A stretch of 64,000 nucleotides of DNA from a virus. The first letter of the stretch is position 1. Every line of letters begins with the position of its first letter. The notes beneath the pieces are model-generated. The model worked only from the letters and a program-made list of their open reading frames with translations, did no database searches and was not told the DNA's origin. The stretch covers positions 1-64,000 of IMG/VR virus record IMGVR_UViG_3300036800_000073; one strand, given 5' to 3'. The position numbers were made by a program, and so were the translations under genes. Positions 39,085-56,743 of the stretch are shown here, piece after piece.

Positions 39085-39718
39085 TGACCGCCGCAATGAC
39101 GACCATCCCCGAGTTATTCCTGTCGCTGTGGGCCATCTATGATCATCCCTCAGACTACCCGGACAAGTACGTGATGCGGCGCTGGAATTTGTACCGAGGC
39201 GATGACACGTCCTATGCCACCGAGGAGATGGCGCTGGCGGATACACTGCATGGAATCCGCTGCAAGGTTCCACCTGGGCTCGCTTGCCTGCCGCGTTTCG
39301 TCGGTGACGATCCATCTATCGTGGAGGTCTGGATATGACGCCCGGCGAGGTTTGTCTCATCTTCGATACGACGGAGCTTAGTTCGGATATTGCGCGCATC
39401 CTGATTGGGGAGTTGTCACTCCCTATCGTTTCAGCCATTCGATTGAAATGCGGCGATTTTGAGTATGATGAAATCATTTATCTTGAGGATGAACATGAAT
39501 GATCTTCCTCTTCCCACCAATTGTGAGTTATGTAAAACCGGCGAGCAGATTGGCGAGACACCGGCGACACACTCTCATGAGGCGTTGTTTCTCCTTGCCC
39601 GTTGCCATGCCAGCGCCGCGACCAAGGCCGTACTTGCTGGCGATGTTCTGACCATCCAATGCGCCCGATGTGGAAAGATCGTCGTGCGGCTCCGAGTGAC
39701 CGGTATAGTGCCGAACAA

Positions 39719-40165
39719 ATGAAAATCACCAAAGGCCAACGCGAGGCACTGCGAGGAATGTTCGGAGGCAAGTGCGCCTACTGCGGCTGCGAGCTGCCAG
39801 CAAATGGCTGGCACGCGGATCATGTCAAGCCGGTGCTCTATGGCTCGAAGTGGCGTAAAGCTAGCTATGACGGAACCCGCTATATTCCTTCGGGATTCGT
39901 GAACGATGGAACGGTACTGCGGCCGGAGAACGACACCATTGAGAATATGTTTCCCGCCTGCCGAGCGTGCAACATCAACAAGTCGGGGATGCCCCTGGAG
40001 ATGTGGCGCGAGTTCTTGACCGAGGGACCCGTATCGTTGGCATCGTACAACGGGCGCTTCAGGCACATGCTGCGATTCGGAATCGTGACCGTGAACCCAC
40101 AGCCGTTCACATTCTGGTTTGAGCGATATAACTGTGAAGCGCAGGATGGTCCGCGCAGTGTCTAG
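39719..40165 (+). CDS. HNH endonuclease
   Basis: CAYCG, ADH, N.FPACRACN..K. Confidence 0.85.
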   Translation: MKITKGQREALRGMFGGKCAYCGCELPANGWHADHVKPVLYGSKWRKASYDGTRYIPSGFVNDGTVLRPENDTIENMFPACRACNINKSGMPLEMWREFLTEGPVSLASYNGRFRHMLRFGIVTVNPQPFTFWFERYNCEAQDGPRSV

Positions 40166-41128: not shown

Positions 41129-41590
41129 TCACACTGCCAGCGAAATCTCCAGTTGCTTGCCGAGTGCATTGAGGGCTGCAGCAAGCGATCCAATCTTCGT
41201 GTTGTGGCGAAGATCCAGGAGCCGCGTCACTTCCTGGGGAGTGACGCGCATCCGGCGCGAGAGTTCGGCTTGGCTCATGCGTTGAGCGGCCATCTCGCCG
41301 ATCAGCAGCAGCTTAACCGCGAAGTCTGGCGAAACGGCGATCAGGCGGTGTGCCTTACATACGCGCTGGTGATGTTTGCGAGATGAACCATGGCCATGGC
41401 GAATTTTAGAGGGAACCGGCAGGGCTTTACCGTCGCGCACTAGAAAGTAGAGCGCCGATTCCAGAGCGTCTCGACCGTGGCGCATGGCGTCTTCGAAATC
41501 GTCTCCCTGAGAGTAGACGCCGGGAAAGTCGGGAAAGCTGACCATAAAGGTGTCGCCGTCCGGTTGTATTGTCGCTACGTAGCTCAACAT
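41129..41590 (-). CDS. hicB: HicB antitoxin
   Basis: VSFPDFPG..SQGD..EDA, C-terminal HTH (SQAELSRRM..TPQEV.RL). Confidence 0.9.
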   Translation of the reverse strand: MLSYVATIQPDGDTFMVSFPDFPGVYSQGDDFEDAMRHGRDALESALYFLVRDGKALPVPSKIRHGHGSSRKHHQRVCKAHRLIAVSPDFAVKLLLIGEMAAQRMSQAELSRRMRVTPQEVTRLLDLRHNTKIGSLAAALNALGKQLEISLAV

Positions 41591-41597
41591 GGTGTTC

Positions 41598-41783
41598 CTA
41601 TCTGAGCCTGATCGCCAGGTCGCGTTCGATGGCCTTGAGAAGCCCGATGCCGATGTCCTTGCCGGAGTGCATAGGAAGGATGGATTGCCTGCCGTTCAGA
41701 AGCACATGGAGATGAGAGCCTTTGCCCCATTCGAATGTGGCTCCCTTCGCCGCCAGCATCCGTCTTAATTCTTTCGCTCTCAT
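41598..41783 (-). CDS. hicA: HicA mRNA interferase toxin
   Basis: 61 aa; GKGSH, LPMH, LLKAI; directly upstream of hicB. Confidence 0.9.
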   Translation of the reverse strand: MRAKELRRMLAAKGATFEWGKGSHLHVLLNGRQSILPMHSGKDIGIGLLKAIERDLAIRLR

Positions 41784-41953
41784 GATTAAAGTATAAGCAA
41801 TTTTGCTGATGATTGCAACATAATTTAACATCTTTGGTTTCAAGTGTTTAATGGCGTTATGCATTGATTATAAAGGCGTTACATGGTAGCCGCGATAATC
41901 ATTATGCCGAATCGCCGCGAAAAGGCTGGGAGGCGAGCCTGTGAGCGTTCACC

Positions 41954-42520
41954 ATGCCAGAACCGGCCAAGCGTCCCGTGGGGCGACCGAGCAAGAAATT
42001 CAATCAGCGACATGCTGAGCACATTCTGGATTGCTGGTCCTGTAGCGCATTCTCGCTGGAGCGTGTGTTGGAGGAATTAAGACAAAAAGATGCCCGCTAT
42101 CCAAGTCTTACCACCGTTTGGAGTTGGAAGCGTCGCTATCCAGAATTTGCGAAGGCTTACGCGCACGCGCGAATAGATCGCGCCGACTATATGGCGGATG
42201 GGGCGCTGGATGAGGCGCTGACCACGCGCAAAGGGATCTTCCGCAAGAGCAGCTTAAAGAGCGGCGTTAAGACCGATGAACTCCGCGAGGACGACAATGT
42301 TGCTCGCTCGCGATTGATTGCCGAAATGAAAATGCGCCGGGCCAGCCAGTTGAACCCGAAGGAATATCGGGAGCGGATGCCGGATGCTCACGATGAAGGT
42401 CCCAACGAACAACTCGAAGCCCTGCAACGGGCGCTGCTCGACGGGCCGGTTGACACGCCGGAAGATGATCCGGGCAAAGCGATCGAACCTGCGCCAGATG
42501 AGAAAGAGCCTGGGTCATGA
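41954..42520 (+). CDS. Terminase small subunit
   Basis: GRPSK, PSLTTVWSW, EF..AY..AR; overlaps the large subunit start. Confidence 0.85.
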   Translation: MPEPAKRPVGRPSKKFNQRHAEHILDCWSCSAFSLERVLEELRQKDARYPSLTTVWSWKRRYPEFAKAYAHARIDRADYMADGALDEALTTRKGIFRKSSLKSGVKTDELREDDNVARSRLIAEMKMRRASQLNPKEYRERMPDAHDEGPNEQLEALQRALLDGPVDTPEDDPGKAIEPAPDEKEPGS

Positions 42521-43788
42521 GCGCGATCTTCAAACGCTTTGGCCGCAAGGCACAGCAGTTCATCACCAGGCATCCATCGAAAGACAAGAAATACACTCTG
42601 CTCGAAGGCAGCGTTCGCAGCTCGAAGACGTTCGCGGTCGATGCCAAGCTCATCGCCCATCTATGTCTTTACAAGGTGGAAGGAAAGCGGGTAATCTGCG
42701 GCGCTACCAAGCAAACCGTTTATAAAAACATTCTGCTCGATCTGTTCGGCGTGGTGGGCCGAAAGAACTACACCTACAATGCCGCCAACGGCGAGCTGTG
42801 GCTGTTCGGAACGCAATGGTTCGTGATCGGCGCAAAAGACGAAGCGAGCTACAAGCAAATCCTGGGCATGACCATCGGCATCGCGATCTGCGATGAATGG
42901 ACCGAGTTCCCGCGCAGCTTCACCATGCAGCTTTTCCTTCGCATGTCGCCGGAAGGATCGAGGCTGTATGCCACCACCAATCCCGGGACGCCGCAGCACT
43001 ATCTTTTTACTGAAGTCATTCACGGCGAGGGATTCAAAAACGACATTGAGGTCATTCACTTCACGCTGGCCGACAATCCCAATATTGTGCCCGATGAAAA
43101 ACAGCGCATCATCGCTTCGCAGACCGGGGTCTATTATCAGCGGTACATCCTTGGGCTATGGGTCGTTGCCGAGGGCGCTATCTACAAGGATGCGTGGAAC
43201 GACCGGCTGCTGTATAGCGAGCGGTCGAGGCCGGCCGGCTTGTATGGTGCGGGCGGGTTTGTCGATCATGTGATTGGCATCGACTATGGGACAACCAATC
43301 CATGCGTGTTCCTCGAAGCCATTGATGATGGGGAACGCGCCTGGCTGGACCGCGAATACTTTTGGGATTCGGTCAAGGAAATGAAGCAAAAGACCGATTC
43401 AGAGTATGCCGACGATCTCGAAACATTCATTGCCGGCTCGCGCATCACGGGCCGCACTAATCCGCGGCTCGTGATTGATCCGAGCGCGGCCAGCTTCAAG
43501 TTGGAGTTGATCAAGCGCGGGCTTTGGGTCGTCGATGCCGATAACGATGTGGAGAATGGGATCCGCCGCGTGGCCAGTCTCATGGCAATGAGGCGCTTGA
43601 GAGTGCACGAGGAATGCACCGAGTTCCGCCGCGAAGTCGGCATCTATGAGTGGGACAAAAAGAAAACGATGCTGGGCAAAGAGGAGCCGATCAAGGCTAA
43701 CGATCACACCATGGACGACGTGCGCTATCTGCTCGCCGATCTGTTCCCGGACTGGCGCATGACTTCGGCGGTGGCGCTGGCCGCATAA
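42517..43788 (+). CDS. Terminase large subunit (PBSX-like)
   Basis: Walker A EGSVRSSKT, AICDE, TTNP, GIDYG, IDPSA, NDHTMD..RY. Confidence 0.95.
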   Translation: MSAIFKRFGRKAQQFITRHPSKDKKYTLLEGSVRSSKTFAVDAKLIAHLCLYKVEGKRVICGATKQTVYKNILLDLFGVVGRKNYTYNAANGELWLFGTQWFVIGAKDEASYKQILGMTIGIAICDEWTEFPRSFTMQLFLRMSPEGSRLYATTNPGTPQHYLFTEVIHGEGFKNDIEVIHFTLADNPNIVPDEKQRIIASQTGVYYQRYILGLWVVAEGAIYKDAWNDRLLYSERSRPAGLYGAGGFVDHVIGIDYGTTNPCVFLEAIDDGERAWLDREYFWDSVKEMKQKTDSEYADDLETFIAGSRITGRTNPRLVIDPSAASFKLELIKRGLWVVDADNDVENGIRRVASLMAMRRLRVHEECTEFRREVGIYEWDKKKTMLGKEEPIKANDHTMDDVRYLLADLFPDWRMTSAVALAA

Positions 43789-44409: not shown

Positions 44410-44533
44410 CGGCTTCCCACCACCAGAGGGTAGCAACCCTGAGTCTGCCGTGCGGGTGAAAGGCCCGCGCAATAATCATTATTCTTCTGAGGCTTATCTC
44501 GACCGGAGCCTGATCACAAAAGAGAGTGAGCCG

Positions 44534-46180
44534 ATGCCGAGACGCCGCGCAGCCAAGACGACGAAAAAACCCGGCGCGGTCACAGAGTTTCCCAATGCGA
44601 ACGAAGGGACGCTTCCGGAGATGGGACCGGTCGTAGGCGATTCCTACTCGAATCCCGCAGCGCGATTGGGTGTGGGCACGCCAAATCTTGCCGAGGCCGG
44701 TTACTATCCGCTCATTCGCCTCACTGAAGATTATCCGCTGATCCTGAGCCTCTATCGCAGCTCCTGGATTATCCGGCGCATCGTCGAGGCTGTGCCCGAT
44801 GACATGCTGAAGTCGTTCCCGGCGCTGAATACCGAGATCAAGCCCGATCTCATCAAGCGGTTTGAAAAGATCGTGCGCAAGACGGGAACACTCAAGAAAA
44901 TCCGGCAAGCCGCCAAGTGGGGCCGCTTGTTTGGCGGCGCGGGAGCCGTGATCGTGATCGCCGGGCACCACGATCTAGCGGAGCCGCTCGACCTGGAGCA
45001 GGTGGAGCCCGGCTCATACAAGGGCTTGATCACGCTCGACCGCTGGAGCGGCATCATTCCGGGCCCGACGTTGAACGACGATATCGAGGACACGGTAAAC
45101 TTCGGCCTGCCTGCCAACTACAACTGCATCATGGATGCCGGTAGCACCGAAATCCACCATAGCCGCATTTTGCGCTTCATTGGACGCGATCTGCCGCAAT
45201 GGGAAAAACAAGTGGAATTGTATTGGGGAGAGTCCGAAGTCGAGGTCGTCTTCGACGAACTAAAAAAGCGCGACTACTCTTCTTGGAACATCGTGTCCCT
45301 GCTCACCCGAGCGCAGGTGATGTCGATTGAGGAGCCGCAACTTGCCGCGCTGATGTCGGGCATTACCGGAGGCCCGCAGGCGCATCAGAACTTCGTTACC
45401 CGCATGGAGGCGATGAGCCAACTGCTCAACAGCCAAGGGCTCATGGTGCTGGGCAAGGATGGCAAGCTAAACCAGAACACCTATAGCTTTGGCGGTATCT
45501 CCGATGTCTACCACGAATTCATGAAGGACTTGGCCGCGGCGTGCGGGATTCCCTATGAGATTCTATTCGGGCGGGAGTCGGGATTGGGATCCAATGGCGA
45601 GGGTGGGCTGCAAATCTATTACGACATGCTGGAGCAAAAACGCACCAGCGACATAGACCCGGTGATCGATCAGCTCCTGCCAATCATTGCCATGAGCGCG
45701 TTCGGCGAAGTGCCCGACGATCTCGATCATCATTGGCAACCCGTTCGCACCATGACAGAAAAGGAACGCGCCGAGTTGGCCAAGTCTACGGCCGATTCCA
45801 TTGCCGTGTACTTCAATGCCGACCTGATGACCAAGCGCGAAGCCCGCATGGAAATTCAGCAGTCTTCGGTCGCAACAGGGATCGGCAGCAACTTGACGGA
45901 TGAGGCCGTCGCAGCTACACCAGACAAATATGCGAGCGAACTTGGCATGGGCGAAATGCAAGGCGAACAAGGGGAGCAAGGGGAGCAGCCGGGGGAGAAT
46001 GACGGCGAGGGAACCCCGGACCAAGATCAGCATCTCGAAGCCGGCCCGCAGCGCCCAAATCTCGGAGCGGGCAAAGTTGAAAACCCATTCAGCCGCGAAG
46101 AGAGCAAAGACGACAATCCATTCAGCCGCGCGAACATGAAGGAACCGAAGGCGAGGCAACATGAAATGCCTGTTCGCTAA
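44534..46180 (+). CDS. Portal protein (DUF1073/HI1409-like)
   Basis: LYRSSWIIRRIV..P.DM, WGRLFGG, IHHSRI, FGGI, GIP..ILFG, YYD; position after terminase. Confidence 0.9.
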   Translation: MPRRRAAKTTKKPGAVTEFPNANEGTLPEMGPVVGDSYSNPAARLGVGTPNLAEAGYYPLIRLTEDYPLILSLYRSSWIIRRIVEAVPDDMLKSFPALNTEIKPDLIKRFEKIVRKTGTLKKIRQAAKWGRLFGGAGAVIVIAGHHDLAEPLDLEQVEPGSYKGLITLDRWSGIIPGPTLNDDIEDTVNFGLPANYNCIMDAGSTEIHHSRILRFIGRDLPQWEKQVELYWGESEVEVVFDELKKRDYSSWNIVSLLTRAQVMSIEEPQLAALMSGITGGPQAHQNFVTRMEAMSQLLNSQGLMVLGKDGKLNQNTYSFGGISDVYHEFMKDLAAACGIPYEILFGRESGLGSNGEGGLQIYYDMLEQKRTSDIDPVIDQLLPIIAMSAFGEVPDDLDHHWQPVRTMTEKERAELAKSTADSIAVYFNADLMTKREARMEIQQSSVATGIGSNLTDEAVAATPDKYASELGMGEMQGEQGEQGEQPGENDGEGTPDQDQHLEAGPQRPNLGAGKVENPFSREESKDDNPFSRANMKEPKARQHEMPVR

Positions 46181-46991
46181 CTCGCTCGATGTGATGCTGG
46201 ATGGCTGGAGCGAGAGCGCGCATCCGCGCGTATCTAAAGGCAAAGGTGGCGGTCAGTTTACGTCCAAAGGTGGGAGCGGCTCTGCTCAAGCTGGTGCGGG
46301 ATCGACCTCCCCCGCCGCTGCAAAGGCAGTTGCTGCTCCCGCAATTCCGCCAGAGATTCACGCGCATGTTGCCGACTATCAGCGATTGTTTCCTAAGACG
46401 TGGAAGCGGTTCAATGACTCCATGAGTTCGCTGGGGTCTGTCACGGGTCGCGTGAAGGCTGCAGATTCGCTGCAAGACAAGCTGGAGGGCCGCTACAAAG
46501 ACAATGGCTGGGGTCTGGAGCACATCACCGACACTATCGGGATGCGCTGCACATCGGAAACGCTCGCAGGCGTATATGAGGGAGTCGCCGCCGTTCAGAA
46601 GCAATTCAAGGTGACTACCAATGAAAAAGGCGAGCCCGATGTAGACGACAAAATGATCAAGCCGCAAGGTTTCTACCGAGCGGTGCATATCATCGTCGAT
46701 AGTCTGGACAAAACCGGCGTCAAGCGAGCCGAGATCCAGGTACGGACGATCCGCCAGTCCAACGTCGCCGATTGGGGACACGACATCGCGTACAAAGGCA
46801 AGTTCGCCAAGCACGCCGAAGTGCGGGCCTATGCCAACGCTGTCGGCGACGCGAATTGGGAGTTGGACAACGGACGCGAAGCAAAAATGCCGGAGCCGCC
46901 CGAGATTCTGAAAAAGCATGGGCTGGAGTTCGATCCGGCGAAGACCTACTATTCGCATTGGCTGGCGAAAGAGAAGCCGGAGTTTCTGTGA
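46161..46991 (+). CDS. Small alarmone synthetase (RelA/SpoT domain) with FANSLD leader
   Basis: GRVK..SL..K, DTIGMR, YRAVH, EIQVRT, HDIAYK. Confidence 0.88.
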   Translation: MKCLFANSLDVMLDGWSESAHPRVSKGKGGGQFTSKGGSGSAQAGAGSTSPAAAKAVAAPAIPPEIHAHVADYQRLFPKTWKRFNDSMSSLGSVTGRVKAADSLQDKLEGRYKDNGWGLEHITDTIGMRCTSETLAGVYEGVAAVQKQFKVTTNEKGEPDVDDKMIKPQGFYRAVHIIVDSLDKTGVKRAEIQVRTIRQSNVADWGHDIAYKGKFAKHAEVRAYANAVGDANWELDNGREAKMPEPPEILKKHGLEFDPAKTYYSHWLAKEKPEFL

Positions 46992-47203
46992 TGGCCGACA
47001 AGTGGGATCGAAGCAACAAAGCGCCAAAATCGCTATTCCGCGTGATCGGCGAAGACTCGTTCGAGATGCCGCCAGCAAACTATTGGGTAGGCGATTATAA
47101 GACCTACGAAGAGGCGCGCGCTACTGCTCGGAGCTGCGCCAAGCCCTTGAATCCGATGTGCGTTTACGACGACCTTGGGAAGCTGAAGTTCTTGATCGCA
47201 TGA
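46991..47203 (+). CDS. Small hypothetical protein, translationally coupled to the SAS
   Basis: TGATG overlap; 70 aa. Confidence 0.65.
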   Translation: MADKWDRSNKAPKSLFRVIGEDSFEMPPANYWVGDYKTYEEARATARSCAKPLNPMCVYDDLGKLKFLIA

Positions 47204-47368
47204 CGCCGCATGGTAATTTCATCGATGCTCATCTGGTCGCGAATCTGAAATCCGTGCTGATTTGCCGCCGCTGCCTGGCGCTGATCTTTCCTGCCCACGC
47301 TCAAGCGCATAACGCATGGCACGAGCGGCTGCGCCGCGCTGTGGATGAGACGGAGATGTTGGAATCCA

Positions 47369-47836
47369 ATGAAGCCGACAGTCTTTGCCAATAGTCTTGA
47401 TTACTGGTCGGCTTCGCAATGGGCGCTCGATGCGGGAGTGAATGAGACGCGGACGCTGCACGGGCTCACAATCATTATTGAGAATCCGCAGTATTCCATG
47501 CGCGAAGGCTGGGGTTGGATGTCCGCGGCTCCGGCAGATTACGGCTATATAGCCGGCACGGTGGGAGCTGATGGCGATGAGGTTGATTGTTACGTCGGGC
47601 CAAACCCGCGCAGCCAAAACGTTTTCATTGTGGATCAAAACCGTCGAGGCGGCGCGGAGTTCGATGAACACAAAGTCATGCTCAATTATGATTCTGCGGC
47701 GGACGCCAAGCGGGATTATCTCGATGGCCATACCGAGGGAGCTGATATCTTTCGTTCCCTCACGCCAGTCTCGCTCCGGATGCTCAAGCTCTGGTTGCGA
47801 CGCGGCGATATGACTAAGCCCTATAGCGAGGCGTGA
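47369..47836 (+). CDS. Inorganic pyrophosphatase-like protein (phage polyvalent-protein type) with FANSLD leader
   Basis: IEN..S.R.G, DYGYI.GT.GADGDEVD.YVGP, VDQ, FDEHKVML. Confidence 0.85.
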   Translation: MKPTVFANSLDYWSASQWALDAGVNETRTLHGLTIIIENPQYSMREGWGWMSAAPADYGYIAGTVGADGDEVDCYVGPNPRSQNVFIVDQNRRGGAEFDEHKVMLNYDSAADAKRDYLDGHTEGADIFRSLTPVSLRMLKLWLRRGDMTKPYSEA

Positions 47837-47838
47837 CC

Positions 47839-49164
47839 ATGCGAGCGATCTTCGCCAACTCCTTGGACGTGATGCTCGATGGTTTTGAAGAATCGGAACA
47901 TCCGCGAGCGGGCGAAGGTCCGGAGGGCGGACAGTTTGTCGCCAAGGGCGGCTCGGCTCCGGCTGCAAAACATCGCGTGCATAACAAGTATGGCGAAGTG
48001 GGAGAGAAGTTCACCGCCACGATGGGCGCGAAACACCTGAAACCGGGCGATGTCTTAGCGGAGAATGAGCAAGGGCGGGCGCTGAAGGTTCTCAGCCTTG
48101 GACCAAAGACCTCCACGGGCGGGCAGTGGTACAACTTCGAAGTCGTTAATGCGGAAGCCGAACAGACCGGAGGCAAAGGATCGAAGTCGGCCCACCTGGT
48201 CGCTGCGCCAGCGGATCGCGAACAGTGGCCGGAGCACATCAAGAAGCTGGTGGTTCCGCCTGCATGGACCGGCGTTAAGATTGCGCAGAATCCCGATGCC
48301 GATTTGCTGGTGATCGGAAAAGACAAAGCCGGTCGCGATCAATATGTCTACTCGGAAAAGTTCTCGAAGTCGCAAGCGGCTTTGAAGTTCGCCCGCATGG
48401 AGGGACTGCGCAAGGATCGGCCACTCATCGAGGGCCAGCTCGCAGAGCTTCGCAAGAGCACTGAGCCAGGCAAACGCGATCATGCCGACTGCGCCATCCT
48501 GGTTATGAAAATGGGCGTTCGCCCCGGCAGCGATACCGATACGAAGGCGAAAGTCAAAGCCTATGGAGCCACGACGCTTGAAGGCAAGCATGTCGTAGAC
48601 GAAGGCGGAGCGGTGTTCTTGCGTTTCGTAGCCAAGAAAGGCATCTCGCTGAATTTGCCGGTCGAGGATAAGGCGCTGGCGGCGACGCTCACCAAGCGAG
48701 CGAAGAAAGCGGGCCCCGATGGGCGCATCTTCGGCGACGTTCGCGATGGCTCATTGCTCGACTTCGTGCATGGCCTGGATCACGGCGGCTATAAGACGAA
48801 AGACTTTCGCACGGCGCTGGCGAATGACTTGGCGGCTCAAGCGATCAAAGGAGTCGCGAGGCCGGTAGACGCGAAGACATACAAGAAAGCGGTTCGTGAA
48901 GTGGCGCTCAAAGTATCGAGCAGGCTTGGCAATACGCCAACGGTTGCGCTCCAGTCCTACATCCATCCCGCTCTCTTCGCGCCGTGGCAGGGCGCAATGG
49001 CCGTAGTTCAGAAAAAGGGTGAGGCTCCGAAAGCCTCATCAGGTAAACCGGTAGAGAAGCTGTCCAGCAAGTCGCCGACTCCGGCCGCAGCCGGCCTGAA
49101 TGCCGCGCAAAAAGCCTGGGCGACACGGCGAGCCGCGCGGGAGGCACAGAATGCCGCAGCCTGA
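47839..49164 (+). CDS. DNA topoisomerase IB with FANSLD leader
   Basis: PPAW..V.I, G.D..GR.QY.Y, RPGS, YGATTL, F.AKKG, KDFRT, LGNTP.V...SYIHP (catalytic Tyr). Confidence 0.93.
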   Translation: MRAIFANSLDVMLDGFEESEHPRAGEGPEGGQFVAKGGSAPAAKHRVHNKYGEVGEKFTATMGAKHLKPGDVLAENEQGRALKVLSLGPKTSTGGQWYNFEVVNAEAEQTGGKGSKSAHLVAAPADREQWPEHIKKLVVPPAWTGVKIAQNPDADLLVIGKDKAGRDQYVYSEKFSKSQAALKFARMEGLRKDRPLIEGQLAELRKSTEPGKRDHADCAILVMKMGVRPGSDTDTKAKVKAYGATTLEGKHVVDEGGAVFLRFVAKKGISLNLPVEDKALAATLTKRAKKAGPDGRIFGDVRDGSLLDFVHGLDHGGYKTKDFRTALANDLAAQAIKGVARPVDAKTYKKAVREVALKVSSRLGNTPTVALQSYIHPALFAPWQGAMAVVQKKGEAPKASSGKPVEKLSSKSPTPAAAGLNAAQKAWATRRAAREAQNAAA

Positions 49165-49534
49165 TTCCCTTCCCGATATTCACTTTGGCAGCGCCGAGGC
49201 AGCATCGCTTGATTGGCGCAAATACAAGGATGATTCTCCCGATGACGATGAAGAGTTGGAGCACACGCCGCCGAGTATCGTCGCCATGCTCGGATTCGAT
49301 CCCCGTGAGGCCGAAGACGGATGATCGCGAGGTCCACATGTCTGTCGAGATTGATGCCAACACCATCACCATCAATGGGAAGCATCTGGCGGTGAATGTG
49401 TTTTATGCCATCATGGACACCAGCTCAAGGCAACGCACCTTGTGGCAGTTCATCGAAAAGGATGGCGAGATTCAAGCTGTCGCTTATAGCGAGCGGCAAG
49501 TGATCTGGATCGATCATGGAGTCAATGAAGACTG

Positions 49535-50398
49535 ATGGCCGAGCCGTTTCATCCGCTGCGGCGCATCGAGATCGCATATCGCAAAGCTATCTTCGATGCA
49601 CTGCGCCAAATGGTCGAGATCAGGATCGAGGACGGGAGCGAAGGCCAGTGGCTCGCGGATCTGATCGGGCTCGCGCACAGTAAAGAGCTGGCGCAGATCG
49701 GCGCAGCTATCGCGGCGCGGATGGTGCGCTGGGTCAATGTCGAGAATGCCAAGAGCTGGCGATATGCATCGCGACAGTCGCAACGGTCGCAGATGCTTTA
49801 CCGGCTACTCCAAGAGGAAATGTCGGGCACGGTCGGAACCCGCGTACAGCAAATCGTCCGCGAGAATGCCACACTGATCTCTTCGATTCCCTATACGGTC
49901 GCCGGAGAGCTGACCAACGAGATCATGGCGGCACAGCAGACCGGCGCAAGGCACGAAGTGATCGCGCGCATGATGCGCAACCGCTTTCCAATTCTGGCCC
50001 GTCATCGCGTGGCGCTGATCGCCCGCACGGAGACAAGTAAGGCAAGCACGGCACTGACGCGGGCCAGGTCGGAGGACCTGGGACTAAGTTGGTTCGTGTG
50101 GAAGACCTCGCATGATGTCCGCGTGCGGCCCGCGCACGAGCACATGGAAGATGTAGTGTGTTCGTGGAACGATTTGCCGTCGCCCGAGGCATTGGTTCAC
50201 ATTCGCAGCAAGCTGGGGAAATACGCACCAGGAGACGCTCCAAATTGCCGCTGTTATCCGGCTCCGGTGTTGTCGCTAGAAGACTTGTATCGCAATGGAA
50301 GTGAACGGCGGAAAGTCTACGCCAACGGAAACATTCAACGCATGACCCGCGCGCAGTTTGCGCGGCTGTCAGGAATCGAAGCGCGGGTCGCCGCATAG
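49535..50398 (+). CDS. Head morphogenesis protein (MuF/SPP1 gp7-like)
   Basis: LIARTE, W.TS.D.RVR..H, PG...NCRC. Confidence 0.9.
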   Translation: MAEPFHPLRRIEIAYRKAIFDALRQMVEIRIEDGSEGQWLADLIGLAHSKELAQIGAAIAARMVRWVNVENAKSWRYASRQSQRSQMLYRLLQEEMSGTVGTRVQQIVRENATLISSIPYTVAGELTNEIMAAQQTGARHEVIARMMRNRFPILARHRVALIARTETSKASTALTRARSEDLGLSWFVWKTSHDVRVRPAHEHMEDVVCSWNDLPSPEALVHIRSKLGKYAPGDAPNCRCYPAPVLSLEDLYRNGSERRKVYANGNIQRMTRAQFARLSGIEARVAA

Positions 50399-50408
50399 GA
50401 GATGTCGT

Positions 50409-51254
50409 ATGAAACGTTCGACGATAATCGTTAGTTTCGCAGCTCTGGTCTGCGTTCTTGGAATGTCCGGGTTCGCGTATTTTGGGGGACAGGCCGGGAG
50501 CGTTGCCTCCAATCCAGCACCGACCGCAAACGTGATCGCCAAGTACACCACCGCGCAGCAAGGTGTTCCGATCCTCACTCCGTCGCTATTGTCCGACAAT
50601 GGAACCACGCTGTCCTACAACGGCACCCCGGTCGCGGGCGGCACCGCATATGCCAACATCTATAGCGCGGGCGGAGGCACTGCTCAGGCACAGACCATGA
50701 CTCCCTCTCCTGCGCTGCCGGCTTTGCTGTCTGGCATCGGCGTGATTTGGGCACCGACCGCGGCCAACACCGCTGCTGCTCCAACCTTGGCGATCAGCGG
50801 CCTGACGGCGAAGCCCATTACCAAATGCGGGACGGCGGCGCTGGTCGCAAACGACATTGTGACAACTGCGCTGGCTGTCGGTTATTACGATGGAACGGAA
50901 TTCCAACTGTTGAATCCGCAGGCTTCCGGCTGTCCTCGCTCTGCCTATGCCACCACTACGAATTGCACCAGTTCGGCGTCTCCGGCAGTCTGCGCCGCTG
51001 CCGCCGCTGGGTCAGTCGTCGTCGCCGCTGCCGATACTACAATTGTCGTGGATACCACAGCGGTTACGGCTAACAGCCAAATTATCGTGCAAGAGGATGC
51101 CAGCCTAGGTGCCAGGCTGAGTGTGACCTGTAACGCGACAGCAGCCACCGCGCCGCCCGTTGTAACCGCGCGAACCGCCGCAACGAGCTTCACCATCACG
51201 ACCACCGTGCCCATCGCGAATCCGCGCTGCCTCAGTTATTTCATCGTCAACTAA
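50409..51254 (+). CDS. Thr/Ala-rich putative virion/fibre-like protein with N-terminal hydrophobic signal
   Basis: MKR + hydrophobic stretch; ANT.AAPTLAI.GL.AK.I and YDGTEFQL motifs seen in tail-fibre-like modules. Confidence 0.55.
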   Translation: MKRSTIIVSFAALVCVLGMSGFAYFGGQAGSVASNPAPTANVIAKYTTAQQGVPILTPSLLSDNGTTLSYNGTPVAGGTAYANIYSAGGGTAQAQTMTPSPALPALLSGIGVIWAPTAANTAAAPTLAISGLTAKPITKCGTAALVANDIVTTALAVGYYDGTEFQLLNPQASGCPRSAYATTTNCTSSASPAVCAAAAAGSVVVAAADTTIVVDTTAVTANSQIIVQEDASLGARLSVTCNATAATAPPVVTARTAATSFTITTTVPIANPRCLSYFIVN

Positions 51255-51255
51255 A

Positions 51256-51390
51256 ATGCGATTCCGCTTTGTGTTCGCCTGGTACGACTTTTGGATGGGA
51301 GCTTACTTCGATATCGCCAGGCGAAAGCTCTATATTTTGCCGATTCCATGCGTCGGAATCGTAATCGAATGGACAAAGCCATGCCGCTAA
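51256..51390 (+). CDS. Small hypothetical phage protein (44 aa, absent from ORF track)
   Basis: MRFRFVFAWYDFWMGAYFD..KLYILPIPC fills the gap between genes. Confidence 0.55.
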   Translation: MRFRFVFAWYDFWMGAYFDIARRKLYILPIPCVGIVIEWTKPCR

Positions 51391-51755
51391 CGAATAAGGG
51401 CGAATCGATCTTGCATTCGATGGAAGCCAGCTATCCATCCGAAGAGAAAGCCGAACAGGTGTTCTATGCCAGCCGCAATGCTGGCACGATAACCGGCGTG
51501 GATACCGCGCCAGAAGGAGTTACCGCCATGGAAGGTCATCGCATCGACGATCTTGGCAAGTCCACATTACACGCCGCCGACAGCGAGGGTCTTCGTGTCA
51601 AAAACCTGGGCGAGTCGGTTCTTCATGCTGACCAGCATGGTGCGGTCGATGCAGCCTTTCAGAGTCCGGGCGGCAACTCCGGGGCGCTGATCTCGCCCGC
51701 GCCGGGTTTGGGCATGTCAGCTTATCAAAGCCCCAAGGTTCCGGACGGCAACTAG
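51381..51755 (+). CDS. Small head-region protein
   Basis: MPLTNKG..EQVFYASRNAGTITGVD. Confidence 0.65.
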   Translation: MPLTNKGESILHSMEASYPSEEKAEQVFYASRNAGTITGVDTAPEGVTAMEGHRIDDLGKSTLHAADSEGLRVKNLGESVLHADQHGAVDAAFQSPGGNSGALISPAPGLGMSAYQSPKVPDGN

Positions 51756-52303: not shown

Positions 52304-52882
52304 ATGGAGCACATCAATCCAGGCACTTCCGCATTCACGTCTCCCGAGATCGCGCCGTATCGCGCGACCGCTGCGGAGCCCTTTCGCCAAGAACAGGCGC
52401 AGGATGCTTTTCATTCCGCCTACGATGGAGCGCCGATCCCGGTCAGCTCTCACATGCCCATCTTTCGTACCGCGGCCATGGTGGACGACTTCAACGAGTC
52501 GATGACGGATGGAACCAGTGAGGGCGCAAAGAAGGCGTGGGAGTCGCGCGAGCGCGGCGCAACCGAACCGGTGACTGTCGCAAAGGGAACCGCGCCAGCA
52601 CCGGGAACGAAGATTCGACCTCCGAGCGATACGGAAAGAGCGGAGGCGCGGGCGGAGTTCCCAGAGGCCGCAGCCAAAGCCGATACGAAGCTCTCCGCGC
52701 ACAAGTGGCCTACCGAAGAAGAAGAGACGGCCAAGCACGCGGAGTATCTCGATCCCAAGCCTGATCCAGACGATCCCGATCAGGAACACGCGGCGGCACA
52801 CGCTGCATTCCTCAAGAAACAACGCGGCGAGGGACATAAGGAATACGCGGCGCAGGATGCGCTGCATCGCGGCAAAGAATAA
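52304..52882 (+). CDS. Acidic head-region protein
   Basis: GGAG RBS; DGTSEGAKKAWE motif. Confidence 0.65.
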   Translation: MEHINPGTSAFTSPEIAPYRATAAEPFRQEQAQDAFHSAYDGAPIPVSSHMPIFRTAAMVDDFNESMTDGTSEGAKKAWESRERGATEPVTVAKGTAPAPGTKIRPPSDTERAEARAEFPEAAAKADTKLSAHKWPTEEEETAKHAEYLDPKPDPDDPDQEHAAAHAAFLKKQRGEGHKEYAAQDALHRGKE

Positions 52883-53146: not shown

Positions 53147-53416
53147 ATGCCGATCCATGGAGGCAGTTCCGCATATGACTCATCCACGATTCCAGGTGGC
53201 GAATCGCCGTATTCGATGTCCATTCCGGAGATGCAGCAAGATGGCACCAGTGAAGGTGCGATGAAAGCGTGGGAGCACCGGCAACGAGAGGAACGGCCAA
53301 CCCTCATGGGCGGTAGACCGATATCGCGAGAGCTGGCCGCGCAGCGCGAGATCGAAGAGGCGAACAGCAAGAGTCACCAGGCCAACGTGGCCCAGAAATG
53401 TGCTCGTAGGGTTTAG
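53147..53416 (+). CDS. Small head-region protein
   Basis: GGAG RBS; DGTSEGAMKAWE motif. Confidence 0.55.
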   Translation: MPIHGGSSAYDSSTIPGGESPYSMSIPEMQQDGTSEGAMKAWEHRQREERPTLMGGRPISRELAAQREIEEANSKSHQANVAQKCARRV

Positions 53417-53449: not shown

Positions 53450-55060
53450 ATGCCGAAATACTATTCGCTACTCCTCACCACGCATATCTCGAAGACGCCG
53501 GAAGGTTATCTCATTTGCCGCGACGTTCCGATTTGCAGGAGCGGTTTTCAGTTATATCGCGGCAAAGAGCTGGTCAGGTTCCCCGGCTATCAGGCAAGTT
53601 GGGGCCTCGATCCGGAAACCATGTACAAGGTCCTCCGGCCGAAAGAAGAGGTCCTGCACCCGGACACGATTGCAAGTTTCAACGGCAAAACGGTCGTCAA
53701 CGAACATCCCGAAAAGGATGTTGTCTATATCGACAACGAAGGTGAACTGAATTGCGGTCACGCCCAGGATATCAAGCGTGGCGAAGACCTACCGCCTACC
53801 GAAGAGTTGCCCGAAGGCGCAGTGACGCTCGCTGCTGACTTGCATATCAAAGATCCGGAGTTGGTCGAAAAGATTTATCCCAAGGATGATCCGGCCAGCG
53901 GCGTACGCGACATCAGTTGCGGGTATTCCCTCAAGCTCAAGCGTTTGGCAGACGGAACGCTTGTCATGTATTGCATTCGCGGCAATCACATTGCCGTTGT
54001 AGAGAAAGGCAGAGCCGGAGAAATGATTGCGATTCAGGATTCGGTTCCCATCGAAACGATGGAAATCCTGGTTGCGATCGGAGATGCGGCACCGCCCGAA
54101 ATCAAGGAAAAGAGGACACCGATCATGAGTATTAGAGAGTTGATTTTCGGGCGCGGAGTCAAAGCAATCATGCCAGATGCCAGCCCGGATGAAGTGGCTT
54201 CCATGATGAAGGAAATGGAAGAGCCGGACAAGCGCGATGGAAAGCCAAAGCCTGCGAAGGACTCCATGGAAAAGCAGGACGAACTCGCCGCCGAACACCC
54301 TCATCGTGTCGCCGCGCACGCTGCGCTTGACCGCTGTCTGGACGCGCGCGGAGCCGACGATCATATGGGCAAGGATGCATTTGGGAAGCCTGCCCATCTT
54401 GACTCCCTGCAACGGGAATTGGCGAAGTTCATTGAGAAAGAAGAGGGTGCCTCTGCCGCTGCGGAGACCGCGAAGGCGGAGCCTGCCAAGGCCGAGCCCG
54501 AGCCGGAGCCCAAGGCCGAGCCGGAAGTGGATGCCGGACCTGCGCCGGAGATCGAGGAGTTGAAAGAGGAAGAACCTCCCAAGGAAGAAGAAGTCGAGCC
54601 GGAACGCGAGCCCGAAGGCGATGCGGACGCGGACGCGGAGCCAAGCGATCCGGAAGATGAAGAAGAGAAGCCCGCCACCGACGCCGAAGAGGTCAAGGAG
54701 CAAGGCGAGAGCGTGCTCAAGCAGGCCAACGATTCGGTACGTAACTATCTCCGAGCAACCAAGCCTCTGGTCGCCAGTATCGTTGCCAAGCCCAGGTCGA
54801 AGTGGACAGTGCCGGAAGCGACCATGGTGGACAGCTACAACAAAGCCGTCCGCAATGTCAACGAGGCTGGCCCTGCATACCGCGTGTTGGCCAAGCCGAA
54901 GGTCCCTTCCAGGATTCCACCACTGGCTAAGGATGCCGAGGCAGCGGCGGCTGCAAACAAGCTCGAAGAGGACAAGATCGCAGCATTCTACGAAGGCGTG
55001 CCGTGGGCGAAGGGCAAAGCAGTTCACGACGCCTATCTCAAAACGAAGGGAAGTAAATAA
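53450..55060 (+). CDS. Prohead protease/scaffold (DUF2213-type)
   Basis: TPEGYL...VPI.RSG, R..EEV, SF.GK.V..EHP, ISCGY, NHIAVV..GRAG; acidic scaffold tail. Confidence 0.9.
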   Translation: MPKYYSLLLTTHISKTPEGYLICRDVPICRSGFQLYRGKELVRFPGYQASWGLDPETMYKVLRPKEEVLHPDTIASFNGKTVVNEHPEKDVVYIDNEGELNCGHAQDIKRGEDLPPTEELPEGAVTLAADLHIKDPELVEKIYPKDDPASGVRDISCGYSLKLKRLADGTLVMYCIRGNHIAVVEKGRAGEMIAIQDSVPIETMEILVAIGDAAPPEIKEKRTPIMSIRELIFGRGVKAIMPDASPDEVASMMKEMEEPDKRDGKPKPAKDSMEKQDELAAEHPHRVAAHAALDRCLDARGADDHMGKDAFGKPAHLDSLQRELAKFIEKEEGASAAAETAKAEPAKAEPEPEPKAEPEVDAGPAPEIEELKEEEPPKEEEVEPEREPEGDADADAEPSDPEDEEEKPATDAEEVKEQGESVLKQANDSVRNYLRATKPLVASIVAKPRSKWTVPEATMVDSYNKAVRNVNEAGPAYRVLAKPKVPSRIPPLAKDAEAAAAANKLEEDKIAAFYEGVPWAKGKAVHDAYLKTKGSK

Positions 55061-55062
55061 CC

Positions 55063-55623
55063 ATGCCCGCAACAGTTATCCCCGTAAAGGGGCTCTACCT
55101 TGGCTTCGTAGGGAACGTCAGTAACGAGGGCTATTCCCTTCGTAAGCCGCGCCTGGTCCAAGCCGCCGATCCGAATCCTATCGCATTCGGCGAAACTTTG
55201 GTCCTGAACACCAACAACACCTACTCCAGCGTCAAGAGCTTCGTGGCCGGCGCTGGCATCGTCACAGCGGCTCTGGCCATGGGCATCGCAACCTCGAATG
55301 TGAATATCAATCCGACCTATGCCTCTGGCGGTTCCGGAAATGTGGCGACGGTCGGCGGCCAATTCGTTCAGGGTGCGATCTGTGACGCGCTGGTGCAAGG
55401 GACGCTCAACGTCTATTGCGCCAATGGCACGCCGACTGCTGGCGGCGCGGTATATTGCCGCGTGGCACTGAATGGTGCCATCCCCAATGGCGTCGTCGGC
55501 GGTCTGGAAGCCGTAGCCGATGGCGGCAATACGGTCCTGCTCACCAACTTCAAGTGGAGCACGGGCTATCTCGAAACCGATGGAAGCAGCCAGCTCACCA
55601 TCCTCACCAGGACCATCGCCTAA
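55063..55623 (+). CDS. Capsid decoration/cement protein
   Basis: Between scaffold and capsid; IAFG, G...V.C..GTP..GG.VY.R. Confidence 0.8.
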   Translation: MPATVIPVKGLYLGFVGNVSNEGYSLRKPRLVQAADPNPIAFGETLVLNTNNTYSSVKSFVAGAGIVTAALAMGIATSNVNINPTYASGGSGNVATVGGQFVQGAICDALVQGTLNVYCANGTPTAGGAVYCRVALNGAIPNGVVGGLEAVADGGNTVLLTNFKWSTGYLETDGSSQLTILTRTIA

Positions 55624-55680: not shown

Positions 55681-55717
55681 TTTGGAACCCGCAGCTACAC
55701 AAAGGAGAAACAAAGCA

Positions 55718-56743
55718 ATGACTCCCAAAGAGTATCAGCAGTCTCTTGCTGCCCTGCGAAGTGGTCAAGTGCTGTCGGATGCCGCGCAAGCGGCCACCGG
55801 CCAGACATTCTTGATGGCAGAGTTGAGCAAGCTCGATCCGGTGGTGCGTTTGCCATTGGAGAACTTCACCTATCTGCGGGATATTCCGCTCGACAAGGGC
55901 GGCGGCTGGGTGATGAATCACATCGCACACAACGTTGACTTCCGCGGCCCACGCGATGCCGGGGCCGGATCGCAGACCAACGATTCGCGCGTGATCGAAT
56001 ACAACGTCAACCAGGATACCTGGCCGGTGTACCCCTACCAGGTGCGTGTCCGCATTCCCATCGTGGAATCGCTGCGGATGGCACAGGTAGGGCGTTCGCC
56101 GCAGGATCTGCTCGACAAGGGCGTGCGTGTCGATTATTCAAAGACGCTCGACACTCGTACTTATCAAGGCTTCCAAGGCGGCGTCAATGGTGGAACGAGC
56201 TATTATGGCCTGATCGGAAATCCGGCCGTCACCAATACCGCGCTGCCGGCGACGGGCACGGGCGGAACCCTGACGTGGAGCACCAAGACCGCTGTGGCGA
56301 TCTTGGGCGACTTCAATTTCATGGCTCTCACCATCTGGAATGCATCGGGAAATGCGCCGGGCGCGATGCCCACGCGATTCCTGGTGCCGCCCACGCAATG
56401 GGTCCTGCTCACGCAGCCCATGGCTGTGGTGGGCGGGCCTTCCGGATATGCGTCGATCCTTGACTACATCCAGAAGAATTATCTCGGCGCGGCCTTCGGC
56501 ATCGTGCCGGAGATTTATCCGCTTCCGGAGTGGCTCGAAGGCGCGGGGCCCGGTCCGACACAGCTCATCATGGCCTACAAGTACGACAAGGACTGCCTGT
56601 CGCTGGGCATTCCGCAGGAGATCACGCGTTTTGGCGCTCCGCCATCCATCGTGTCGGGCTGTTTCGAGTTCCTCTATTTGGCCAACATTGGAGTCGTCAA
56701 GGTCAACCGGCCTCAGACGGTCGGCGGCTTCTACGGCTGCTGA
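55718..56743 (+). CDS. Major capsid protein (DUF2184-type)
   Basis: FL..EL..LDP, YGL..NP.V, W..KT...I..D, GVV.V.RP; AAGGAG RBS. Confidence 0.9.
   Translation: MTPKEYQQSLAALRSGQVLSDAAQAATGQTFLMAELSKLDPVVRLPLENFTYLRDIPLDKGGGWVMNHIAHNVDFRGPRDAGAGSQTNDSRVIEYNVNQDTWPVYPYQVRVRIPIVESLRMAQVGRSPQDLLDKGVRVDYSKTLDTRTYQGFQGGVNGGTSYYGLIGNPAVTNTALPATGTGGTLTWSTKTAVAILGDFNFMALTIWNASGNAPGAMPTRFLVPPTQWVLLTQPMAVVGGPSGYASILDYIQKNYLGAAFGIVPEIYPLPEWLEGAGPGPTQLIMAYKYDKDCLSLGIPQEITRFGAPPSIVSGCFEFLYLANIGVVKVNRPQTVGGFYGC

Follow-up and report, generated by a model that had tools for sequence, protein, structure and literature searches.

Bacteriophage T4 carries a cleavable N-terminal tag, the capsid-targeting sequence (CTS), on its internal proteins IPI-III and Alt, and this tag is removed by the gp21 prohead protease (PMC3012670, PMC9026906). 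In other phages enzymes are joined covalently to head proteins, among them InPase-type inorganic pyrophosphatases fused to the portal and RelA/SpoT domains fused to MuF (Iyer 2017, PMC5512222). Here we examine a 64,000-nucleotide stretch of viral DNA (the window), which is the first 64 kb of the 95,583-bp single-contig virus record IMGVR_UViG_3300036800_000073. Three stand-alone enzymes in its head module, a small alarmone synthetase-like protein (SAS), an InPase-type pyrophosphatase and a type IB DNA topoisomerase (TopIB), begin with a common N-terminal leader built around the peptide FANSLD. We put the chances at about even that this leader is a T4-CTS-like, lineage-specific capsid-targeting propeptide, removed by an Asp-specific head protease of the DUF2213 family; all the evidence for this mechanism is comparative.

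An original prediction, made from the sequence of the window, placed the three FANSLD-bearing enzymes between the portal and MuF genes, and both the open reading frames (ORFs) and the Pfam assignments agree (Table 1). FANSLD has three exact copies in the six-frame translation of the 95,583-bp genome, against 0.0035 expected from composition; each lies within residues 5-11 of a head-module gene product (SAS, pyrophosphatase or TopIB), in the pattern M-x(3-4)-FANSLD. The prediction also held that the peptide rather than the DNA is conserved. The codons it quoted are exact, and four to five of the six differ between any pair of copies, all synonymously. These codons bear on the idea that the leader is a historical by-product without peptide function, either a relic of a polyprotein junction or a homology patch that aids cassette recombination. 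Such an origin would fit the ~100 nt of similar DNA that the SAS and TopIB leaders have in common, the related junctions found inside larger proteins, and a cargo-less leader fragment in G001, the closest relative of the window. It is contradicted, however, by synonymous sites that are almost fully randomised while the peptide is unchanged; as F, N, L and W are also invariant across orthologs 51-67% identical and the motif is always N-terminal, we regard this origin as very improbable.

Altogether 23 leader N-termini were tabulated, from six cargo families: InPase, TopIB, SAS, ADP-ribosyltransferase (ART), zeta kinase and HipA-like kinase. Their alignments give a core of [L/I/V]-[F/I]-[A/G/S]-N-[S/G/A/T]-[L/V]-[D/E], followed after 1-5 residues by W or F. 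The core begins at residues 2-8 in 23/23, always at the N-terminus, and the leader-bearing genes lie between the portal and capsid genes wherever the flanking DNA suffices to tell. The F, L and W of the core are spaced i, i+4, i+7 and would thus share one face of a short helix. The end of the leader was originally described as LD-G or LD-A, which is true for the three leaders of the window; across the whole set it widens to [A/M/C]-x-D at residues 13-23, followed by S/A/G or an acidic residue (D/E), a pattern found in 22 of the 23. Examples are VMLD↓G, WALD↓A, LAVD↓A, WAND↓S and YMID↓S, where the arrow, here and below, marks the bond after Asp.

A leader profile of 25 positions, too short to reach distant variants, returned 17 proteins from 5.8 billion, all of them leader-bearing cargo of one clade. 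Against 1.84 billion cluster representatives it gave one true match above threshold, which added nothing; P0022 and P0023, also matched there, were discarded as translated tandem repeats. No leader was found outside this clade in the 5.8 billion proteins and 1.84 billion representatives. The profile search proposed with the original prediction thus came out in its favour: the matches belong to phages with DUF2213/PF09950 head modules, are spread over six unrelated cargo families and are always N-terminal. The notion of a modular loading tag stands as regards its modularity and head-module context, and is narrowed as regards its breadth: as far as these searches reach, the leader belongs to one lineage rather than to phages at large, and the public data searched contain some 20 such proteins.

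We found that F6, N8, L10 and W13 of the pyrophosphatase leader are invariant in 10 orthologs (51-67% identical), and so are conserved like catalytic residues. In the AlphaFold2 model of this protein, residues 1-22 have pLDDT <50 and lie outside the folded domain, and the fold begins at the predicted cut after D21. Together, this invariance and disorder show the leader to be a portable peptide that is under selection and lies outside the enzyme folds. The same model is relevant to a possible role as a safety or stability pro-peptide, which would keep potentially toxic SAS, ART, zeta and HipA-like kinases inactive or stable within the producing cell until its removal and would have no part in targeting. 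Several cargos do come from toxin families, and the leader does end at a probable protease site; however, its commonest carriers are the pyrophosphatase and the topoisomerase, which are not toxins, and the same short peptide would hardly serve as an inhibitor of six unrelated folds. In the pyrophosphatase model, moreover, the leader is not packed on the enzyme, and a purely protective role seems improbable.

No close relative was found in 50,697 phage records, either by megablast with the head module or by tblastn with TopIB, and the window SAS had no match against viral contigs; portal relatives at 61-65% identity were found in IMG/VR. The leader-bearing clade is a small group of uncultured soil phages. 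Its member closest to the window, G001 (loci L007/L033), is a complete 103,954-bp genome with terminal repeats and a portal 65% identical to that of the window. Between its portal and capsid protein it has five leader-bearing genes (Table 1), with the leader variants LIANGLEDW and FANSLD. A third phage from soil metagenomes (L034/L035) carries the same triad of SAS, InPase and TopIB, each with the leader, its SAS (L035) being 53% identical to that of the window. Leader-bearing TopIB orthologs were found in P0002, P0009 and L034, and other relatives have a tagged pyrophosphatase alone, directly 3' of the portal gene.

Two observations on this clade stand apart. In G001, the gap before the kinase-like cargo gene holds a cargo-less leader fragment, AIFSNSLDVMLDEE, followed by two stops and lacking a start codon (L007 13159-13200); this appears to be a trace of cassette turnover, the relic of a lost or replaced cassette. 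L004 and L005 are parts of one 79,071-bp IMG/VR contig with a portal and tagged-pyrophosphatase region at each end, slightly different between the two (MKTLFANALD versus MKNLFANALD), and probably represent an assembly of two strains or a concatemer.

The position of the cargo genes is of interest with respect to the portal, as the leader might be a permanent, uncleaved docking peptide. It would tether the enzymes non-covalently to the portal or MuF, an in-trans substitute for fusions with up to ~12 sites per virion shared among cargos. The cargo genes lie directly 3' of the portal gene, the SAS start overlapping the portal stop by 20 nt; MuF is present but without an effector; and in Pbunavirus and BcepF1 the InPase is fused to the portal C-terminus, all of which would be consistent with tethering. 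The portal C-terminal tails, however, are completely different between leader-bearing phages whereas the leader is barely changed, and co-variation of leader type with portal tail was looked for and none was found. L001, moreover, has the tail type of L002-L006 and yet a pyrophosphatase without leader. Permanent docking would also leave the conserved [A/M]-x-D at the leader end unexplained, and we consider it unlikely.

The original prediction treated an E..HPR..GGQF motif as a continuation of two of the leaders. The motif is present in SAS and TopIB as described; however, it is not part of the leader. Its pattern, [F/W]-x-E-x-x-H-P-R-x(3-8)-G-x-F, occurs in some cargos only and is missing from the pyrophosphatases, and in P0003 it stands alone between NUDIX and TopIB domains, which sets it apart from the leader. 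Where relatives lack the FANSLD core, their ART-bearing proteins have the motif after L-A-[L/V]-D (LALD↓YTFIPEEHPR, LAVD↓YTFIPEEHPR), and one copy lies inside the L012 ART protein. As judged from these alignments, the HPR motif is a separate junction tag that heads enzyme modules, also inside multi-domain proteins; the pattern is drawn solely from P0003, L011, L012 and G001, and a search for the HPR-tag region among longer proteins found nothing.

The candidate for the protease that would remove the leader is the DUF2213 protein, which is encoded in the same head module. An AlphaFold2 model of its residues 1-205 (pLDDT 74.9) aligned with T4 gp21 (5jbl) over 140 residues, with Z 8.9 and rmsd 4.0; the varicella-zoster (herpesvirus) protease came next at Z 5.6, and unrelated chains scored Z 4.6 or less. 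Foldseek alone gave a weak gp21 row for the model (E 0.29), and a sequence search of the DUF2213 profile against solved structures matched only Pa193 gp24. By this model, the phage encodes a prohead protease with the T4 gp21 fold in the N-domain of its DUF2213 protein. His86, His104, Ser156 (in RD[I/V]SCGY) and His180 are invariant in nine relatives.

The C-terminal half of the DUF2213 protein is acidic, variable and scaffold-like. It contains six invariant Asp residues (D212, D243, D271, D428, D461, D495), all in the context [hydrophobic]-x-D and followed by A/S in 78-100% of sequences. Neither the variable Asp nor the invariant Glu residues of this half show the [hydrophobic]-x-D-[A/S] pattern, and the near-invariant D294 (AALD↓RC) is an exception to it. 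In all relatives, the portal has [I/V]-A-x-D↓SYSN at the border of its variable N-terminus and conserved core (V-G-D↓S-Y-S-N in the window), and the capsid protein has V-[L/I]-[S/T]-D↓AA 21 residues in. Three further DUF2213 lineages, Klebsiella phage Mulock, Vibrio phage D82 and an Acinetobacter Obolenskvirus, have A-I-x-D↓S at the end of the DUF2213 protease domain, repeated x-D↓[A/S/G] in the scaffold half (T-G-D↓A ~4 times in Mulock) and a [hydrophobic]-x-D site near the start of the capsid protein. In one leader subgroup the element WANDS matches the AANDS site of the DUF2213 scaffold half. The leader was also compared with the scaffold island QANDSV, the N-terminus of MuF (KAIFDALRQ) and that of the decoration protein, and these likenesses were too weak to use.

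Some further proteins of the locus have features in common with these sites. In the window and G001, the DUF2213 protein has a 15-residue insertion (54035-54110, + strand, residues ~196-220) that provides a second A-I-x-D-S/A-x-P site where the protease domain ends (AIQDSVP...VAIGDAAPPEIK), so that both phages have two copies of a probable self-cleavage site. A small head-module protein (51291-51755, +; L033 9461-9829) has three repeats of G-[E/K]-S-[I/V/T]-L-H-[S/A], which resemble the conserved GESVLKQAND↓S island of the scaffold half; possibly this is another protein of the scaffold or core, with several cut sites. The proteins at 52304-52882 and 53147-53416 (both +) have D↓GTSEGA[K/M]KAWE.R in common, with Asp again just before the shared stretch; a related motif, KAWATR, stands at the end of TopIB in both the window and G001, and is also found in the kinase-like cargo of G001.

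An independent comparison is provided by Pbunavirus (E217, Pa193 and 14-1). As in the window, the gene order is portal, MuF, DUF2213, beta-tulip decoration protein and capsid protein, an InPase is present, and A-x-D↓S sites occur in the portal, scaffold and capsid protein (PMC10329688, PMC11456595). Unlike in the window, the InPase is fused to the portal C-terminus and not leader-tagged, and DUF2213 identity is only ~26%. Phage 14-1 (L030 4159-11397) has A-M-D-S in its portal (70-73), DUF2213 protein (397-400) and capsid protein (62-65). The E217 and Pa193 capsid models, whose sequences are identical there to 14-1, begin at residue 66, two after D64 (D64↓S65). In Pa193 the first 93 residues of the portal were undetected by liquid chromatography-mass spectrometry, and a piece of the DUF2213 homologue is bound under the capsid vertices (PMC11456595). 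The DUF2213 protein was called a scaffolding protein by the authors of these studies, who assigned it no protease role (PMC10329688, PMC11456595). In the XM1 structure 30 N-terminal residues are absent; this could not be tied to a site, as the capsid protein of the window missed XM1 by sequence. The linker between portal and InPase in 14-1 resembles the leader in a tblastn alignment (MEPSVFSSS versus MKPTVFANS) too weakly for a claim of homology.

Taken together, the recurring Asp sites and the positions at which the models start lead us to conclude that cleavage by DUF2213 proteases probably occurs after Asp, and that the leaders end at such sites. The clipping by the DUF2213 protease proposed in the original prediction is thus supported indirectly, through the gp21 fold, the shared Asp sites and the start of the Pbunavirus capsid models at 66, after D64. 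Several points weigh against the propeptide reading, which should be taken cautiously. In the sequence of the window by itself, A/S follows 6/6 invariant against 9/19 variable Asp residues (hand count; p ~0.03), which is a moderate enrichment. Some leaders have G, D, E, N or K, and not S/A, after their Asp. The Asp rule is drawn from conservation and from the first residues modelled in cryo-EM structures, and disorder too may set where a model starts. Finally, six relatives (L001, L009-L011, L019, L020) encode this pyrophosphatase at the corresponding position with no such leader on it, which indicates either that the leader is not the sole route or that it is unneeded for that enzyme. A complex prediction that paired the leader alignment with the full DUF2213 alignment, run without controls, gave a score of 0.01, which speaks neither for nor against docking. 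Among seven papers that mention DUF2213, none deals with cleavage by its title or abstract.

We propose that, during prohead assembly, the leader core would dock each enzyme on an inner component of the head, the protease-scaffold protein being our first guess for the receptor. The DUF2213 protease would then cut the leader after the Asp of [A/M]-x-D, before S/A/G, as it would likewise cut its own scaffold half and the N-termini of the portal and capsid protein. The enzyme, freed inside the capsid, would leave with the DNA. Docking, cleavage, packaging and delivery are all steps that we infer. In this clade, tagged stand-alone genes would take the place of the portal, MuF or polyvalent fusions by which other phages join these enzymes covalently, and cargos encoded in this manner would be easy to exchange.

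The likeness to T4 lies in a short N-terminal peptide common to unrelated proteins of one phage (three in the window, five in G001), in a cargo that includes an ADP-ribosyltransferase (in G001) and in a protease with the gp21 fold. The T4 CTS ends at the consensus site of the prohead protease that trims scaffold and capsid, and the leader is predicted to end at the recurring Asp site. In contrast to the T4 CTS, to which it has no sequence likeness, the leader would be cut after Asp ([A/M]-x-D), whereas T4 cuts after Glu (L/I-x-E). Its candidate protease, moreover, is fused to the scaffold, and the head genes are of the PB1-like lineage. On these comparisons the leader is an analogue, not a homologue, of the T4 CTS. 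Encapsulin cargo-loading peptides are likewise short and portable, and address diverse enzymes into an HK97-fold shell; they are usually C-terminal and uncleaved and bind the shell protein directly, with no protease, portal or DNA involved.

With the fusion proteins of other phages (PMC5512222; Jamet et al. 2017, PMC5576092), the clade has in common the cargo families themselves (InPase, RelA/SpoT, ART, zeta and HipA-like kinases), the head-gene neighbourhood, and presumed packaging and injection; the polyvalent or multi-domain forms also share the HPR junction tag with the SAS and TopIB cargos. This context supports the status of the present enzymes as cargo, since in other phages members of these families occur fused to portal or MuF or within polyvalent proteins, and their injection is presumed. 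Unlike these fusions, the cargos of the clade are separate single-enzyme genes; each has its own leader, and none of the polypeptides includes a MuF or portal domain. In the window, Pfam gave no PF04233 (MuF) match in SAS, pyrophosphatase or TopIB and one catalytic domain in each, so they are not multi-effector polypeptides. TopIB was not found among the polyvalent-protein domains of PMC5512222, where 'topoisomerase' occurs once, in the reference list.

A cleavable N-terminal tag on head cargo was thus already known from T4, and the cargo families from portal, MuF and polyvalent fusions. What appears new is the tag and its two-part build, the use of stand-alone genes in a PB1-like head module, TopIB as a cargo, and the predicted Asp rule of DUF2213 proteins; we found no paper in the literature on any of these. 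The coordinates of the features discussed are collected in Table 1.

Table 1. Features of the head module in the window, with the leader-bearing cargos of the closest relative, G001.
Feature	Position	Strand	Details
Large terminase, start of head module	42517..43788	+	Pfam Terminase_6N 1e-09
Portal protein	44450..46180	+	PF06381 1e-88; likely true start is the ATG at 44531
Cargo 1, SAS, 276 aa	46161..46991	+	MKCLFANSLDVMLDGWSESAHPR..GGGQF; Pfam RelA_SpoT 2.7e-14, residues 96-213
Leader of cargo 1 (SAS)	46161..46202	+	MKCLFANSLDVMLD; predicted cut after D14
HPR junction tag of cargo 1 (SAS)	46203..46259	+	GWSESAHPRVSKGKGGGQF
Small conserved 69-aa ORF without leader, among cargo genes, 3' of SAS gene	46994..47203	+	No Pfam match
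Cargo 2, InPase-type inorganic pyrophosphatase, 155 aa	47369..47836	+	MKPTVFANSLDYWSASQWALDAG; PF18823 6.8e-33
Leader of cargo 2 (pyrophosphatase)	47369..47431	+	MKPTVFANSLDYWSASQWALD; predicted cut after D21
Cargo 3, TopIB, 441 aa from ATG	47839..49164	+	MRAIFANSLDVMLDGFEESEHPR..GGQF; Topoisom_I 1.2e-12, Top1B_N_bact 5.1e-07
Leader of cargo 3 (TopIB)	47839..47880	+	MRAIFANSLDVMLD; predicted cut after D14
HPR junction tag of cargo 3 (TopIB)	47881..47937	+	GFEESEHPRAGEGPEGGQF
Stand-alone MuF head-morphogenesis protein, 287 aa, no effector fused	49535..50398	+	PF04233 2.8e-14; phrog_324 7.6e-53
DUF2213 protein: gp21-like prohead protease domain by model (53450-54064) and acidic scaffold half with many conserved [A/M]-x-D↓[S/A] sites	53450..55060	+	PF09979 1.9e-34
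Capsid decoration protein	55063..55623	+	PF23982 XM1_gp53_minor_capsid 7e-11
Major capsid protein	55715..56743	+	PF09950 7.9e-33; V-L-S-D↓A-A site 21 residues from start
G001 leader cargo: ADP-ribosyltransferase			PF03496; MNSLIANGLEDWTLAVDADF..
G001 leader cargo: 306-aa protein resembling HipA/PI3K-type kinase			Structural look-alikes in MuF fusion proteins
G001 leader cargo: zeta-toxin-type kinase			PF06414
G001 leader cargo: pyrophosphatase (InPase)			
G001 leader cargo: TopIB			

The 69-aa ORF among the cargo genes has a 45% identical counterpart after the zeta-kinase cargo in G001 (L007 15175-15414) and could serve as an immunity or chaperone protein for a toxic cargo. Directly 3' of TopIB lies a small ORF (49185-49535, +) without a Pfam match, whose C-terminus reads ..QVIWID.. 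and whose position, by eye, is kept in G001 (L033 1813-2148). Fibre-like proteins, with a signal peptide, Ala/Thr-rich or very large (1065 and 1576 aa), are placed unusually among the head and cargo genes of the clade (window 50358-51254, +, no Pfam match; L007 15366-20016; L033 2176-6906). Just upstream of the terminase genes, adjacent ORFs (41129-41864, -) look by eye like a HicB antitoxin and a HicA toxin, and an ORF at 39602-40165 (+), near the same genes, has an HNH-endonuclease-like Cys/His pattern, again by eye; HNH genes near the terminase are common in cos/HNH packaging modules.

What the enzymes might do on delivery can be considered by analogy. MuF-fused RelA/SpoT-type domains include adenosine 3'-pyrophosphokinases that make (p)ppApp (PMC12226406), and the SAS may have a comparable effect, upsetting the nucleotide pools of the host in early infection. 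The pyrophosphatase could help by driving such reactions forward or by clearing by-products of signalling (cf. Iyer et al., PMC5512222). A packaged TopIB could relax the entering DNA, and conservation of the SAS, InPase and TopIB triad in two phages suggests that the enzymes act together. Poxviruses package their own TopIB, which is not known as a virion cargo from elsewhere.

The broader reading, which we hold rather tentatively, is that a two-part address-and-release code (a FANSLD..W dock and an [A/M]-x-D cut) would let a clade of soil phages load exchangeable stand-alone enzymes, TopIB included, and that DUF2213 proteins would act in maturation as Asp-specific proteases, with cut sites that the sequence itself reveals. 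If true, this would be a second worked example, independent of T4, of how arbitrary proteins are addressed to a phage capsid, and would offer a short portable tag with a release site predictable from sequence, useful for loading proteins into phage particles. It would help to predict which phage genes encode injected early effectors, and a type IB topoisomerase would join the probable virion-delivered enzymes. It would also predict the cutting rule of the DUF2213 head proteases, which are found in 930 phage records including the clinically used Pseudomonas PB1-like phages, and the maturation sites of these therapeutic phages would be predicted from A-M-D-S.

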